Below, piece by piece: positions 37,734-49,312 of a DNA stretch of 64,000 nucleotides. Origin of the DNA: Escherichia coli. GTDB lineage: Bacteria; Pseudomonadota; Gammaproteobacteria; Enterobacterales; Enterobacteriaceae. Where the stretch lies: the NCBI RefSeq assembly GCF_003790525.1, contig NZ_CP033635.1; one strand, given 5' to 3'. The position numbers and the translations under genes are program-made. Each line of letters opens with the position of its first letter. Position 1 is the first letter of the stretch. Below the pieces are notes generated by a model. The model was not told where the DNA came from and did not search any database. It saw nothing but the letters and a program-made list of their open reading frames with translations.

Positions 37734-37750
37734 CCCCCAGAAACATCAAC

Positions 37751-37769
37751 GGCTCCTGAATCAGGAGCC
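37751..37769. terminator. Bidirectional terminator hairpin between ytfL and ytfK
   Basis: ggctcctga-a-tcaggagcc perfect palindrome between convergent genes. Confidence 0.7.
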
Positions 37770-37794
37770 GTCTTATTACTGCATAGCACTTTGG

Positions 37795-43311: not shown

Positions 43312-44277
43312 ATGATTAGCGGCGTGCTGTACGCCCTATTAGCAGGGTTGATGTGGGGGCTTATTTTTGTCGGGCCGTTGATCGTGCCGGAATACCCGGC
43401 GATGTTGCAGTCGATGGGGCGTTATCTGGCGTTAGGGTTAATTGCGCTACCCATTGCCTGGCTGGGACGCGTGCGTCTGCGTCAGTTGGCGCGTCGCGAC
43501 TGGCTTACCGCCTTGATGCTCACTATGATGGGCAACCTCATCTATTACTTCTGCCTTGCCAGTGCCATTCAACGTACTGGCGCGCCTGTTTCCACGATGA
43601 TTATCGGCACCCTGCCGGTGGTGATTCCCGTTTTTGCCAATCTGCTTTATAGCCAGCGCGACGGCAAACTCGCGTGGGGAAAACTCGCCCCGGCACTGAT
43701 TTGTATTGGCATCGGCCTGGCGTGTGTGAATATTGCTGAGTTAAACCACGGACTCCCCGATTTTGACTGGGCACGTTATACCTCAGGCATCGTGCTAGCG
43801 TTAGTTTCCGTGGTCTGCTGGGCATGGTATGCCCTGCGCAACGCCCGCTGGCTGCGGGAAAATCCCGACAAACATCCAATGATGTGGGCGACGGCGCAGG
43901 CGCTGGTCACGCTGCCGGTTTCTCTCATCGGCTATCTCGTCGCCTGTTACTGGCTGAATATGCAAACGCCGGACTTCTCCTTACCCTTTGGCCCCCGTCC
44001 GCTGGTGTTTATTAGTCTGATGGTTGCGATAGCCGTGCTTTGCTCATGGGTTGGCGCACTCTGCTGGAACGTCGCCAGCCAGCGATTACCGACAGTGATT
44101 CTCGGGCCGCTGATTGTTTTCGAAACGCTGGCAGGTTTGCTGTACACCTTTTTACTCCGCCAGCAAATGCCGCCGCTAATGACGCTGAGCGGTATCGCGC
44201 TGTTAGTGATTGGCGTGGTCATCGCGGTCAGAGCAAAACCAGAAAAACCTTTAACTGAATCTGTCTCAGAAAGTTGA
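43312..44277 (+). CDS. ytfF: EamA/DMT-family inner-membrane transporter YtfF (about 321 aa)
   Basis: ORF 43303..44277; polytopic membrane protein; start taken at MISGVLYALLAG. Confidence 0.88.
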   Translation: MISGVLYALLAGLMWGLIFVGPLIVPEYPAMLQSMGRYLALGLIALPIAWLGRVRLRQLARRDWLTALMLTMMGNLIYYFCLASAIQRTGAPVSTMIIGTLPVVIPVFANLLYSQRDGKLAWGKLAPALICIGIGLACVNIAELNHGLPDFDWARYTSGIVLALVSVVCWAWYALRNARWLRENPDKHPMMWATAQALVTLPVSLIGYLVACYWLNMQTPDFSLPFGPRPLVFISLMVAIAVLCSWVGALCWNVASQRLPTVILGPLIVFETLAGLLYTFLLRQQMPPLMTLSGIALLVIGVVIAVRAKPEKPLTESVSES

Positions 44278-44335
44278 CACGCTGGCAGTGAGTTAAATAA
44301 GCCTCTGCTACGTAAGGGTTATAGCTTTTGCCTTA

Positions 44336-44358
44336 AAGATGCATTTAAAATGCATCTT
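44336..44358. promoter_or_regulatory. NsrR-type operator upstream of ytfE
   Basis: aagatgcattt-a-aaatgcatctt perfect palindrome 27 bp upstream of the ytfE start. Confidence 0.85.
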
Positions 44359-44384
44359 ATCTTATTAAGAATGAGGTATCAGCT

Positions 44385-45047
44385 ATGGCTTATCGCGACC
44401 AACCTTTAGGTGAACTGGCGCTCTCTATTCCTCGCGCTTCGGCTCTGTTTCGTAAATATGATATGGATTACTGCTGTGGCGGTAAGCAGACGCTGGCGCG
44501 CGCGGCGGCACGTAAAGAACTGGATGTTGACGTCATTGAAGCCGAACTGGCAAAGCTTGCTGAACAACCGATTGAGAAAGACTGGCGTAGCGCCCCGCTG
44601 GCGGAAATCATCGACCACATTATTGTGCGCTATCACGATCGCCATCGCGAGCAGCTGCCGGAGCTGATCCTGCAAGCGACTAAAGTCGAGCGCGTTCACG
44701 CCGACAAACCAAGTGTGCCAAAAGGGCTGACAAAATACCTGACTATGCTGCATGAAGAGCTTTCCAGCCATATGATGAAAGAAGAGCAAATTCTCTTCCC
44801 GATGATCAAACAAGGCATGGGCAGCCAGGCAATGGGGCCAATCAGCGTAATGGAAAGCGAGCACGATGAAGCGGGCGAACTGCTGGAAGTGATCAAACAC
44901 ACCACCAATAACGTCACACCGCCGCCGGAAGCCTGCACCACCTGGAAAGCGATGTATAACGGCATTAATGAACTGATTGATGACCTGATGGAGCACATCA
45001 GTCTGGAAAACAATGTACTATTCCCGCGCGCGCTGGCGGGTGAGTGA
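44385..45047 (+). CDS. ytfE: Iron-sulfur cluster repair di-iron protein YtfE (RIC), 220 aa
   Basis: [50 protein letters not shown]... Confidence 0.95.
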
Positions 45048-45091: not shown

Positions 45092-46585
45092 TCAGTCATT
45101 CAGTGGAAGTAATTCATTGTTGTAACTGGTGTACTTACCTTCAACGGTAAGCAAACTGCCGTTTTTATCAAGATGCGCCGCATCGAGTTGTCGAGTCTCA
45201 TTACGCCGCTTCGCATCACGTACCAGCCCATCGCCTACGTAATAAATATAGTGGTCATCATGAGCAAAGGTATCTGATAATTGACCATTGGCGTATTTAA
45301 ACCACGTCCATTGGCCTTTCAGTTCAAAATGCTCAACCGTGTCTTCATCAATAAAATACGTATAGCGATCGTCATGTGCTAAATAATTTAATGGTGTGCC
45401 ATCGGGGCTTTTATACCACTGCCATTGCCCATTAATATCAAAAATAGTCACATCATCGCGCGCGATGAAATAAATTTTGTTCCCTACAACATTAGCACCT
45501 TTCTGTAATTCTTGTTGTGGGTCTGGTAAATGTATGACCGACAGCGTTTTTTCGACCGCAGATATATATTTCACCAGATAGAGCGAATCTTTATATTGCG
45601 CCACATTCTCCGTCAGCGGGCGAAAATATTCCGGATCAACATCAGGAATTGTCGCAACCCGGCAGTCATTAGCACGCCTGGAAGCATCACGCGTCATCCA
45701 GGTTACTTTATCCCGCTGTAGGTCAAATATACTTCGGCAGTTTTTACCGAACGCATAACGTTTCTCCCCGTCTTTATCGCGATAAATTAGCAGTGAACCG
45801 GCTATCCAGCGCACAATATGAAAGGTATCCGGATCGGCGTTGATGGCATCTCCATTCACAAAGACCTGCGATTTAGTCCGCCAGATTGTATCCCAGGGTC
45901 CCGGATTACTTTTGCTTTCGCAGCTATTAGGTGAATAAATAATGGGACGACGTGTCCAGGGTTTAATGTCAAGAATAGAATACCCTTGCGCACTACCTAA
46001 CCAGCGCCCCTGAAAGTAAAGATTGCGACGATCTTTCAGCACATCCGCGGAATCAAGTGAATTCATCCTTCCCCCCACCTGTTGCAGCGAATCCATATCG
46101 ACCTGCTTTTCGCCGTGATTATCATCCGTGCGTTCGCCATCAAAATAGAGGCTGTCTTTATCGGCAGCAAAACGCCCCCATGCGCGGAATGTTGCGGCAT
46201 CGACTTTCGGTGTTCCCGGCGGGTTCTGAACTATTTTCCCTGCCCATAAAATATGGCGGCCATCAGTCAACCAGTCGAAACGCCAACCACCGTTGGTTCT
46301 GATATAAGCGCCACCATCCACCCGCACAAAATCATTATTGATATCATCAGGAGAATCATATTCATCATCAGTGCCGTCAGATACACGGCGCAGTTGTTTG
46401 AACCTCACCTGCGGTAAATGAATATCCGGAAAATAGAGTCCGTAACCATCGCTATCTTCAACAATATATTTTGTTCCTTGCCCCCACGGTTGGTAATAAA
46501 AAGAGGCAGATGGTACGCCGGAGCAGGCTATTGAATTGAGTGAAAATAAAGCCAGTGCGAGACAAACGGGTTTAATTGGTAACAT
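45092..46585 (-). CDS. Secreted repeat protein, paralogue A (497 aa), DKNYY-like repeats; function unknown
   Basis: ORF with N-terminal hydrophobic signal-like segment MLPIKPVCLALALFSLNSIAC; repeated motifs (GKIVQNPPGTPKVDAATF, DKDSLYFDGERTDD, VNGDAINADPDTFHIVRW, KIYFIARDD, YTYFIDED, YIYYVGDG); clearly paralogous to the adjacent ORF. Confidence 0.75.
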   Translation of the reverse strand: MLPIKPVCLALALFSLNSIACSGVPSASFYYQPWGQGTKYIVEDSDGYGLYFPDIHLPQVRFKQLRRVSDGTDDEYDSPDDINNDFVRVDGGAYIRTNGGWRFDWLTDGRHILWAGKIVQNPPGTPKVDAATFRAWGRFAADKDSLYFDGERTDDNHGEKQVDMDSLQQVGGRMNSLDSADVLKDRRNLYFQGRWLGSAQGYSILDIKPWTRRPIIYSPNSCESKSNPGPWDTIWRTKSQVFVNGDAINADPDTFHIVRWIAGSLLIYRDKDGEKRYAFGKNCRSIFDLQRDKVTWMTRDASRRANDCRVATIPDVDPEYFRPLTENVAQYKDSLYLVKYISAVEKTLSVIHLPDPQQELQKGANVVGNKIYFIARDDVTIFDINGQWQWYKSPDGTPLNYLAHDDRYTYFIDEDTVEHFELKGQWTWFKYANGQLSDTFAHDDHYIYYVGDGLVRDAKRRNETRQLDAAHLDKNGSLLTVEGKYTSYNNELLPLND

Positions 46586-46617
46586 AGCGTCATCCTGATG
46601 CTGTTAGCGTGAATAGG

Positions 46618-47775
46618 TTATTTAAATAAGGGTTTAAGCCCGCTCGGGGGTTGCTTCACCGATAACCAACCTCCCTTGCCTAAGTTATAACGCAGCCATT
46701 CACCTTGTTGGGCGTGTTCTTTCCCAATTCCAGTCGCTTGTTGAGTGTAAAGCTGCCCGTCTGTTGATATAAACGTGTTAGTTAATCCCCAACTACCCCC
46801 TGCTTCAAGTGAGTCGGAGAGATCCTCTGGCTTGAGATTAACCAACTCACCTTCGCCCAGGGCGTTAATTGTGACTTTATATATTTGGTTCTTATATAAA
46901 CCGGTATTCCGAACAAACAGATAAAAATATTCCGGATCAACTCCCGCCAGCGTTTCATAAATACACTCACTGCCCGCTGGAGTGGCTTCATATTTGAGCC
47001 AGGACACGTTATTCAGACCAATATTAAAAGGTGCACAGCGATAGCTGGTATCCTCCAGCTCATAGTCACGCTCGCCGCTTTTATCGCGATAAACTAAGCG
47101 TTCGCCAGGCATCCAACGTTTAATCTGAAAAGTTTTGCGATCGGCGGGCAGTGGCTTGCCATTAACAATCACCTGCGAATTTGTCTGCACAACAAATTGC
47201 AGGGAGGAATCATGCCGCAGGATTTGAAATCCGTCAGCGCTTCCCAACCAGTGCCCCTTATGCCAAAGACTATTTTTATCACGCAGTAAATTCCAGATGT
47301 CCGTCTCTTCAAGCGTTGACATATCCACCTGCTTATCACCGCTATTATCATCGGTACGCTGACCATCAAAATAGATACTGCGTTTATCAGCAGCGAAAGC
47401 GCCGAATGCCTGAAAACTGGCAGCGTCGACTATAGGTTTACCGGGGGGATTTTTCAGGACTTTGCCAGACCAAAGAACAGAGCGTCCATCGGTGAGCCAG
47501 GCATGTTCGCAATCCCCCTCATCATCGCAATCGAACTTATCGGGATTAAAATCGGACAGTAACCGGGAATCTTGTTTATTGGCTAAATTGGCAATACGCC
47601 AAAGGCGGGAAAAATTAATATCTGGTAATTCGGAGAGGATCTCATCTTTTTCCCCCTTCTGTTCGACAACATAAACCGTGCCTTTCTCCTGCTGGCGGTA
47701 ATAAAAATCCGCGCCCCAGGAAGGTGAAATAGAGGGAGGTAATGCGGCGATTAATAACCAACTGCGCTTAACCAT
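46618..47775 (-). CDS. Secreted repeat protein, paralogue B (about 386 aa), DKNYY-like repeats; function unknown
   Basis: ORF 46618..48003; probable start ATG 47773-47775 gives MVKRSWLLIAALPPSISPSWGADFYY (signal-like); shares a long conserved block with paralogue A (WLTDGR..LW.GK...NPPG.P.VDAA.F.A.G.FAADK.S.YFDG.RTDDN.G.KQVDM). Confidence 0.7.
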   Translation of the reverse strand: MVKRSWLLIAALPPSISPSWGADFYYRQQEKGTVYVVEQKGEKDEILSELPDINFSRLWRIANLANKQDSRLLSDFNPDKFDCDDEGDCEHAWLTDGRSVLWSGKVLKNPPGKPIVDAASFQAFGAFAADKRSIYFDGQRTDDNSGDKQVDMSTLEETDIWNLLRDKNSLWHKGHWLGSADGFQILRHDSSLQFVVQTNSQVIVNGKPLPADRKTFQIKRWMPGERLVYRDKSGERDYELEDTSYRCAPFNIGLNNVSWLKYEATPAGSECIYETLAGVDPEYFYLFVRNTGLYKNQIYKVTINALGEGELVNLKPEDLSDSLEAGGSWGLTNTFISTDGQLYTQQATGIGKEHAQQGEWLRYNLGKGGWLSVKQPPSGLKPLFK

Positions 47776-47863
47776 AATGAACTCTGCAACGAGTGGCAAA
47801 GATCCACGGTAAGCTCGCGCCTGAGGGCTGTCTATGATGGTAGATTTTTTTAGGAATATATAA

Positions 47864-47890
47864 AGACAAAGGCACCCGCAGGTGCCTTTC
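47864..47890 (-). terminator. Intrinsic terminator downstream of cycA
   Basis: aaaggcacc-cgca-ggtgccttt hairpin followed on the minus strand by a U-rich stretch. Confidence 0.65.
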
Positions 47891-47908
47891 AGAGTTATAA
47901 ACGCGGCA

Positions 47909-49312
47909 TTACTTCGCCATGCGTTTTTTACCAATAAACAGCCAGCCCAGCCCCAGCGCGATAAACCACAGCGGGGTAACCAGCAGCGCCTGGCGGGTGT
48001 CATCTTCCAGTGTCAACAACACCAGAACAAACACAAAGAACGCCATACATACCCAGCACATCAGCTTGCCGAGTGGCATCTTGTAGATCGACTTCTCATG
48101 CAGATGAGGACGCTGTTTGCGATACACCAGGTACGAGCAAAGGATAATCGTCCAGACAAACATAAACAGAATCGCGGAAACGGTTGTAATCATCGTGAAC
48201 GCGCCAATCACGCTGGGATTCACATACAACATCACCACGCCGCCGAGCAGACAGATACAAGAGAAGGTCAGCCCTTTCGCGGGTACTGCGCGCTTAGAGA
48301 GTTTAGCGAACGCTTTCGGTGCCACACCTTCCTGGGCCAGACCAAACAGCATACGGCTGGTAGAGAAGACACCGCTGTTAGCGGAAGACGCCGCAGAGGT
48401 CAGCACCACAAAGTTGATCACGCTGGCAGCCGCAGGCAAACCTACCAACACAAACAGTTCAACGAACGGGCTTTTCTCCGGGACTACCGAACTCCACGGC
48501 GTCACGGACATAATCACAATCAGCGAGAAGACGTAGAACATAATGATACGGATCGGAATGGAGTTAATCGCGCGTGGCAGTGATTTCTCTGGATCTTTGG
48601 TTTCCGCAGCGGTGGTACCTACCAGCTCAATCCCTACGAAAGCGAAAACCGCTATCTGGAATCCAGCAAAGAAGCCACTTAAGCCTTTCGGGAACCAGCC
48701 GCCGTCATTCCACAAATGTGCAAATGATGCTTCCACACCGGTCGGTGACTGAAAGTGCATCGCCACCATGACCAGGCCGACAACAATCAGCGACACGATG
48801 GCGACGATTTTGATCATCGCAAACCAGAACTCCATCTCACCGAACATTTTTACCGTGGCGAGGTTTAGAACCAGTAACAGAATGATCACGGATAACGAAG
48901 CAACCCAGTCAGAAAGCCCAGGGAACCAGAATTGCGCATAGGCGGTAATGGCAACCACGTCTGCCATACCGGTTACAACCCAGCAGAACCAGTAAGTCCA
49001 GCCGGTGAAATATCCTGCCCACGGCCCGAGTAAATCGGAAGCGAAGTCACTAAAAGATTTGTATTCCAGATTCGAAAGCAGCAATTCCCCCATTGCCCGC
49101 ATCACGAAAAAGAGCATAAAACCGATGATCATATAAACGAAAATGATCGACGGCCCGGCAAGGCTAATCGTTTTGCCGGACCCCATAAACAACCCTGTAC
49201 CAATGGCACCGCCAATGGCAATAAGCTGAATATGTCGGTTTGTGAGATTGCGCCGTAGCGACTGTTCAGCCGGAGCCTGATCATCGGCAACGACTTTTAC
49301 CTGATCTACCAT
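47909..49312 (-). CDS. cycA: D-serine/D-alanine/glycine:H+ symporter CycA (APC family), 467 aa
   Basis: ORF MVDQVKVVADDQAPAEQSLRRNLTNRHIQLIAIGGAIGTGLFMGSGKTI... Confidence 0.95.
   Translation of the reverse strand: MVDQVKVVADDQAPAEQSLRRNLTNRHIQLIAIGGAIGTGLFMGSGKTISLAGPSIIFVYMIIGFMLFFVMRAMGELLLSNLEYKSFSDFASDLLGPWAGYFTGWTYWFCWVVTGMADVVAITAYAQFWFPGLSDWVASLSVIILLLVLNLATVKMFGEMEFWFAMIKIVAIVSLIVVGLVMVAMHFQSPTGVEASFAHLWNDGGWFPKGLSGFFAGFQIAVFAFVGIELVGTTAAETKDPEKSLPRAINSIPIRIIMFYVFSLIVIMSVTPWSSVVPEKSPFVELFVLVGLPAAASVINFVVLTSAASSANSGVFSTSRMLFGLAQEGVAPKAFAKLSKRAVPAKGLTFSCICLLGGVVMLYVNPSVIGAFTMITTVSAILFMFVWTIILCSYLVYRKQRPHLHEKSIYKMPLGKLMCWVCMAFFVFVLVLLTLEDDTRQALLVTPLWFIALGLGWLFIGKKRMAK

Follow-up and report, generated by a model that had tools for sequence, protein, structure and literature searches.

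What is the function of a perfectly symmetrical 23-nt element that lies just in front of ytfE in a chromosome of Escherichia coli? The element is found in the intergenic region between ytfF and ytfE, within the 64,000-nt stretch of DNA analyzed here (hereafter the window). The original prediction, made from the letters alone, took it for a binding site of NsrR through which nitrosative stress would control an iron-sulfur repair gene. We conclude that the palindrome is almost certainly an operator at which the ytfE promoter is controlled by NsrR, the NO-sensing [4Fe-4S] repressor of the Rrf2 family. In the present analysis, this conclusion is based on the sequence itself, its statistical exceptionality, and its near-maximal score on an independently derived NsrR matrix; in addition, the site keeps its position in 80 species, and the same genome encodes NsrR. 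The literature contributes the in vivo occupancy by NsrR of an identical sequence in strain CFT073, the induction of ytfE by NO and nitrate, and its derepression in nsrR mutants.

The palindrome and its genomic setting

Read directly from the sequence, the 23 nt at positions 44336–44358 of the window are AAGATGCATTTAAAATGCATCTT, that is, aagatgcatttaaaatgcatctt. A repeat finder returned two arms of 11 nt each, 100% complementary and separated by a 1-nt spacer, so that the perfect 11-1-11 palindrome claimed originally is borne out. The symmetry ends at 23 nt because positions 44335 and 44359 are both A. The element lies within the 107-bp ytfF–ytfE intergenic region, and its end is 26 nt upstream of the ytfE ATG at 44385, which confirms the placement immediately upstream of this gene. 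The coordinates of all features are collected in Table 1.

Table 1. Features of the ytfE regulatory region in window coordinates
Feature	Position	Strand	Remarks
NsrR operator	44336..44358	.	Perfect 11-1-11 inverted repeat, AAGATGCATTT-A-AAATGCATCTT
Left (promoter-distal) NsrR half-site	44336..44346	+	AAGATGCATTT; identical in 62/80 Enterobacteriaceae species
Right (promoter-proximal) NsrR half-site	44348..44358	-	AAGATGCATTT on the minus strand
Polymorphic base making the palindrome perfect	44352		G, site position 17; K-12 has A
Candidate -10, TAAAAT	44346..44351	+	Putative; 5/6 matches; at the operator center, its conservation confounded with that of the operator
Candidate -10, TATCTT	44358..44363	+	Putative, suggested by conservation; first base shared with the operator
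Candidate -10, AAGAAT	44367	+	Putative; its -35 region would fall inside the operator
Shine-Dalgarno sequence of ytfE, GAGG	44374..44377	+	7 nt before the ATG; block conserved across species
ytfE coding sequence	44385..45047	+	220 aa; ScdA_N and Hemerythrin domains (di-iron); regulated gene

Perfect palindromes of this type are rare. A brute-force count found three in the window, compared with 0.03 expected from composition-preserving block shuffles, and the one in front of ytfE is the only AT-rich member of the three. The 23-mer occurs once in the window, and a degenerate NsrR-type pattern likewise occurs once. The remaining two perfect 11-1-11 palindromes, at 37749–37771 (ACGGCTCCTGAATCAGGAGCCGT) and 60926–60948 (AACGCCGACCAATGGTCGGCGTT), are both GC-rich and terminator-like, and the former carries a terminator-like flag on both strands.

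The identity of the downstream gene is supported by RefSeq, where DNA 100% identical to the window ORF is annotated as "iron-sulfur cluster repair protein YtfE". The role in iron-sulfur repair is nevertheless under debate: Crack et al. 2022 (PMC9052748) make the case for YtfE being an NO-generating nitrite reductase.

The regulator itself is encoded elsewhere, as nsrR is absent from the 64-kb window. The 3.25 kb of the window downstream of ytfE match E. coli SMS-3-5, as well as a few further strains, with 100% identity, and the last 1690 bases of the window show no mismatch to SMS-3-5 at the predicted coordinate. The window corresponds to the reverse complement of NC_010498.1 4768311–4832310, or to an identical strain. 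In SMS-3-5, nsrR is annotated at 4750972–4751397, which is 16.9 kb past the window end. Its product, apart from the GTG start codon, is presumably the same as the K-12 NsrR sequence.

On the other side of ytfE, between this gene and cycA, the minus strand of the window carries a pair of paralogous ORFs (45092–48003) with lengths of 497 and 461 aa. Both are annotated "hypothetical protein", they are 36% identical to each other over 343 aa, and a Pfam search of the two returned no hit. The first starts with a lipoprotein-like signal (…LNSIACSG). Of 5426 complete E. coli genomes, only 270 contain at least 80% of this segment; in K-12 and FDAARGOS_497, the segment is absent and ytfE is directly followed by cycA.

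Agreement with NsrR sites and binding data

To compare the site with the NsrR consensus, we used a symmetrized log-odds matrix derived from the 27 11-1-11 sites of CFT073 listed in Table 4 of Mehta et al. 2015 (PMC5320621). ChIP-seq-positive sites were kept, and the ytfE site and one duplicate were removed, leaving 15 sites. With ytfE excluded in this leave-one-out manner, the window site scores 29.46 bits against a matrix maximum of 30.94 bits. It is essentially the optimum of an NsrR matrix built without it, and the comparison thus agrees with the predicted assignment to NsrR. The K-12 allele of the site scores 28.72 bits on the same matrix. Every other published site scores lower than the window ytfE site, the best of them being hcp at 24.8 bits, and the best score in 200 shuffled windows was 20.54 bits. 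The runner-up 23-mer of the window reaches 10.34 bits. No further NsrR site was found in the 64 kb, where the best other full-site score is 10.3 bits, and NsrR half-sites with two mismatches or fewer are not enriched in the window (18 vs 26 expected).

The comparison extends to the architecture of other NsrR operators. Those of hmp, hcp, ygbA, and yeaR have in common with ytfE the 11-1-11 arrangement and half-sites of the AAGATGYATTT type. They differ in being more degenerate (21–25 bits on the same matrix) and in being combined with FNR or NarL/NarP sites, none of which was found at ytfE. A more distant parallel is provided by the crystal structure of the Streptomyces coelicolor NsrR-hmpA1 complex (Rohac et al. 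2022), in which the pseudo-palindromic operator is also 23 bp long. The S. coelicolor protein is a [4Fe-4S] Rrf2 dimer seated on 23 bp, and loss of the cluster on exposure to NO frees the DNA (Rohac et al. 2022). Its sequence specificity differs, however, since it does not bind E. coli NsrR sites with significant affinity.

Occupancy of this very sequence has been demonstrated in vivo. The identical 23-mer is the top-ranked NsrR site of CFT073 (ln P -25.13) in Table 4 of Mehta et al. 2015 (PMC5320621), and Table 2 of the same paper gives its left half-site as a ytfE half-site motif. The CFT073 site has a ChIP-seq peak (9.65-fold enrichment) whose summit lies 50 nt before the start codon, and nitrate induces ytfE 69.6-fold in that strain (Mehta et al. 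2015, PMC5320621). The CFT073 operator and that of the window have the same 23-mer, the same downstream gene, and the same geometry: the half-site offsets are 33 and 45 nt in CFT073, and the half-site centers are 32 and 44 nt before the ATG in the window. The host strain is the only difference between the two operators; downstream of ytfE, the window has the two-gene insertion of 3 kb described above. By the account given in Mehta et al. 2015 (PMC5320621), ytfE was also bound in the K-12 ChIP-chip study of Partridge 2009. The existing ChIP data, in the case of K-12 as represented in that account, are therefore in line with the prediction.

Regulation of ytfE through this site was anticipated by comparative genomics, which predicted the ytfE NsrR site (Rodionov 2005). 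As cited there, a result of Spiro's indicates that NsrR represses ytfE through the repeat. In a Salmonella nsrR mutant, ytfE is up 544-fold. In EHEC, a recombinase-type reporter driven by the ytfE promoter, carried on a fragment of ~180 bp that runs from the 3' end of ytfF to the first ytfE codons, is NO-inducible, also in the mouse gut. Bodenmiller and Spiro are said to have characterized the K-12 ytfE operator genetically in 2006, and their abstract reportedly has it overlapping the -10; this overlap is not used as evidence here. The ytfE operator is already known: it was predicted in 2005, followed by genetics in 2006, ChIP-chip in 2009, and ChIP-seq in 2015.

Conservation among Enterobacteriaceae

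One genome per species was scanned, which gave 80 Enterobacteriaceae loci encoding close relatives of YtfE. The site is present in all 80 species, with 0–4 mismatches to the window sequence, and its distance to the ATG is 24–27 nt in every one of them, mostly 26. Across 81 sequences, the mean identity to the window base is 0.945 in the site, compared with 0.32 in the intergenic DNA that follows ytfF (44278–44310). The corresponding values are 0.79 for a conserved block (44311–44325), 0.54 for the 10-nt linker before the site (44326–44335), and 0.67 for the stretch between the site and the Shine-Dalgarno sequence (44359–44372). Control of ytfE by NsrR via the palindrome is thus supported by the matrix, by the CFT073 ChIP-seq signal of the identical 23-mer, and by conservation.

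The pattern of variation within the site is also informative. Among 160 half-sites, positions 1, 2, 5, 6, 8, and 9 (6/11) are invariant and changes are limited to positions 3, 4, 7, 10, and 11, with position 7 being either C or T only. The two arms vary independently of each other. Pair 7–17 is a C·A mismatch in 35 of the 80 species, pairs 10–14 and 4–20 are broken in 22 and 23 species, respectively, and compensation on both sides was found in only 3. Because half-site variation is restricted and rarely compensated, recognition by a protein, as a dimer on two half-sites, fits the data, and a hairpin does not.

A second element of the region is the conserved block at 44311–44325 (GTAAGGGTTATAGC), located 11 nt upstream of the operator. 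Its sequence in other genera is CCCC-GAAA-GGGG-TATA(T/G)C, and there are CCTC/GAGG variants, which resemble covariation of a putative 4-bp stem or, possibly, a small palindromic protein site. The left arm of the block has been lost in E. coli. The block contains AGGGTTA, which is one mismatch from the NarL/NarP heptamer AKRRGTA; the heptamer is exact in 43 of the 80 species.

Alleles of the operator within E. coli

The ytfF–ytfE intergenic region has a match in 5415 of 5426 complete E. coli genomes. The window 31-mer containing the perfect palindrome was found in 959 of these ~5415 genomes (~18%) and the K-12 31-mer in 3542 (~65%), the remainder being other variants. The ytfE operator of K-12 is the classic and strongest NsrR target. 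It shares with the window its position, left half-site, and flanking DNA, and differs in having A for G at site position 17 (AAAATACATCTT), which leaves one arm mismatch; the site of K-12 strain JM83 is AAGATGCATTTAAAATACATCTT. Carriers of the perfect allele, with G at 44352, include CFT073, an ST131 isolate, and SMS-3-5. In the other species, the perfect form is present in 12 of 80 and the K-12 form in 19 of 80. Perfect symmetry is a minority allele of E. coli and not a general property of the site.

The polymorphic position 17 coincides with the degenerate Y/R position of the matrix, at which the predicted cost of an A is 0.7 bit. The perfection of the palindrome, true for this strain, is accordingly predicted to carry little functional weight.

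Other variants were encountered in the course of this comparison. Some O157:H7 strains (FRIK2069, SMN197SH3) combine T20C with A17 and thus have two arm mismatches. In E. coli 09A19CPO004B (locus L006, 3179–3230), the operator is intact, but divergence sets in 11 nt past it; a nikR fragment, a truncated rhsB, and a CTX-M-15 gene take the place of ytfE, and the operator has been orphaned by this rearrangement. The species representative of Escherichia albertii, NBRC 107761, encodes a YtfE protein with 100% identity to the one in the window, which is unexpectedly high for a different species. The ytfE promoter flanks of this strain differ from those of the window, and its operator carries the A17 allele.

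Alternative explanations

A palindrome with complementary arms may also act as RNA. It could form a terminator or attenuator that ends ytfF transcripts 59 nt past the ytfF stop, or a structure in the 5'-UTR of ytfE, and we give this explanation only a slight chance. A consensus scan did flag 44336–44358 as terminator-like, counting 10 pairs followed by the tail ATCTTATTAA, and RNA of this strain's G17 allele folds at -10.7 kcal/mol (z = -3.66), forming a hairpin that is absent from K-12-type strains. However, only 3 of the 10 pairs are G–C, and the T-tract that forms the tail is weak. About 65% of E. coli genomes carry the K-12 allele, which folds at -4.0 kcal/mol (z = -0.68), no better than shuffled sequences. 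The uncompensated breaks in arm pairs, seen in 22–35 of 80 species against 3 with double-sided compensation, likewise argue against selection for a stem. Rfam returned no match to the palindrome, and a -10 at TATCTT 44358 or AAGAAT 44367 would place it upstream of the ytfE transcript start. An intrinsic terminator was rejected: the stem is not G+C-rich, the tail is a poor U-tract, compensatory change is lacking, and the majority allele loses the hairpin. Any hairpin function of the palindrome is considered incidental.

Slighter still is the chance that the palindrome is the operator of another regulator, be it another Rrf2 protein such as IscR, or FNR, Fur, or NarL/NarP. Rrf2 proteins have operator sizes in common, about 23–29 bp, and ytfE has been reported to be derepressed in fnr and fur mutants (review PMC9268430). 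According to the same review, however, an FNR or Fur site is not recognized in the ytfE promoter, and the effects of FNR and Fur on ytfE are thought to be indirect. In our scan of 44200–44400, FNR boxes were allowed up to 3 mismatches and Fur boxes up to 6, whereas the NarL heptamer had to be exact; none of the three motifs was found. Moreover, the site scores almost as high as the NsrR matrix allows, and NsrR was found on the identical sequence in vivo (Mehta et al. 2015, PMC5320621). Regulation of ytfE is lost on deletion of nsrR with the operator intact, as reported for Salmonella and K-12. Because of the reported FNR and Fur effects (PMC9268430), NsrR may not be the only input to ytfE.

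That the palindrome is a functionless chance feature of AT-rich intergenic DNA has negligible probability: the AT-richness of the region is the sole point in its favor, and it is refuted by the ChIP data and by conservation, with 0.03 perfect 11-1-11 palindromes expected per window, a site identity of 0.945 against 0.32 in neighboring intergenic DNA (81 sequences), and an ATG distance that is fixed in 80 species.

Promoter arrangement and proposed mechanism of repression

How NsrR bound at this operator would act depends on the position of the ytfE promoter. A consensus sigma-70 scan of 44150–44500 found no promoter, a full-text literature search yielded no ytfE start site, and ytfE was absent from the E. 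coli TSS paper supplements that were searched. Candidate -10 hexamers were listed by hand between 44340 and 44375, with A at position 2, T at position 6, and at least 4/6 matches to TATAAT; the three candidates are given in Table 1. TATCTT is favored as the -10 because the NsrR motif does not explain the conservation of this hexamer: the sequence aligned to it is TATATT in 66 and TATAAT in 6 of the 80 other species (72/80 together). With this -10, transcription is predicted to start near 44370, giving a 15-nt leader that would contain the GAGG Shine-Dalgarno sequence. In E. coli strain 447, the hexamer abutting the operator is TATATT in place of the TATCTT of the window, nearer to the -10 consensus, as in most other enterobacteria. 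Each of the three candidates would put the operator on the core promoter.

We propose that NsrR would bind as a homodimer, with one winged-helix domain on each 11-bp half-site, the half-sites being 1 bp apart. The 23-bp footprint would then cover or abut every plausible -10 hexamer, together with the -35/spacer region. Since such a footprint would lie over the core promoter, bound NsrR would be expected to keep RNA polymerase off the ytfE promoter. NO would nitrosylate or destroy the [4Fe-4S] cluster, upon which NsrR would leave the DNA and ytfE would be transcribed. Repression by promoter occlusion thus appears to be the natural reading with any of the candidate hexamers.

Implications

As a discovery, the site is of low value. 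It is useful as a positive control, because it shows a genuine regulatory site being recognized by a reader who had only the sequence. The promoter of ytfE already serves as an in vivo NO reporter, and the G17/A17 difference could be of minor interest to builders of NsrR-based NO biosensors.

The only detail that looks new is at the population level, namely that the textbook K-12 site is imperfect and the perfect palindrome is a minority allele. It is conceivable, though unlikely, that G17 is not neutral. It might make repression by NsrR tighter or move the threshold at which ytfE responds to NO; alternatively, the hairpin might insulate ytfE from ytfF read-through. If this were true, the effect of G17 would tune the proposed YtfE–NsrR nitrite/NO signaling loop in extra-intestinal pathogens.
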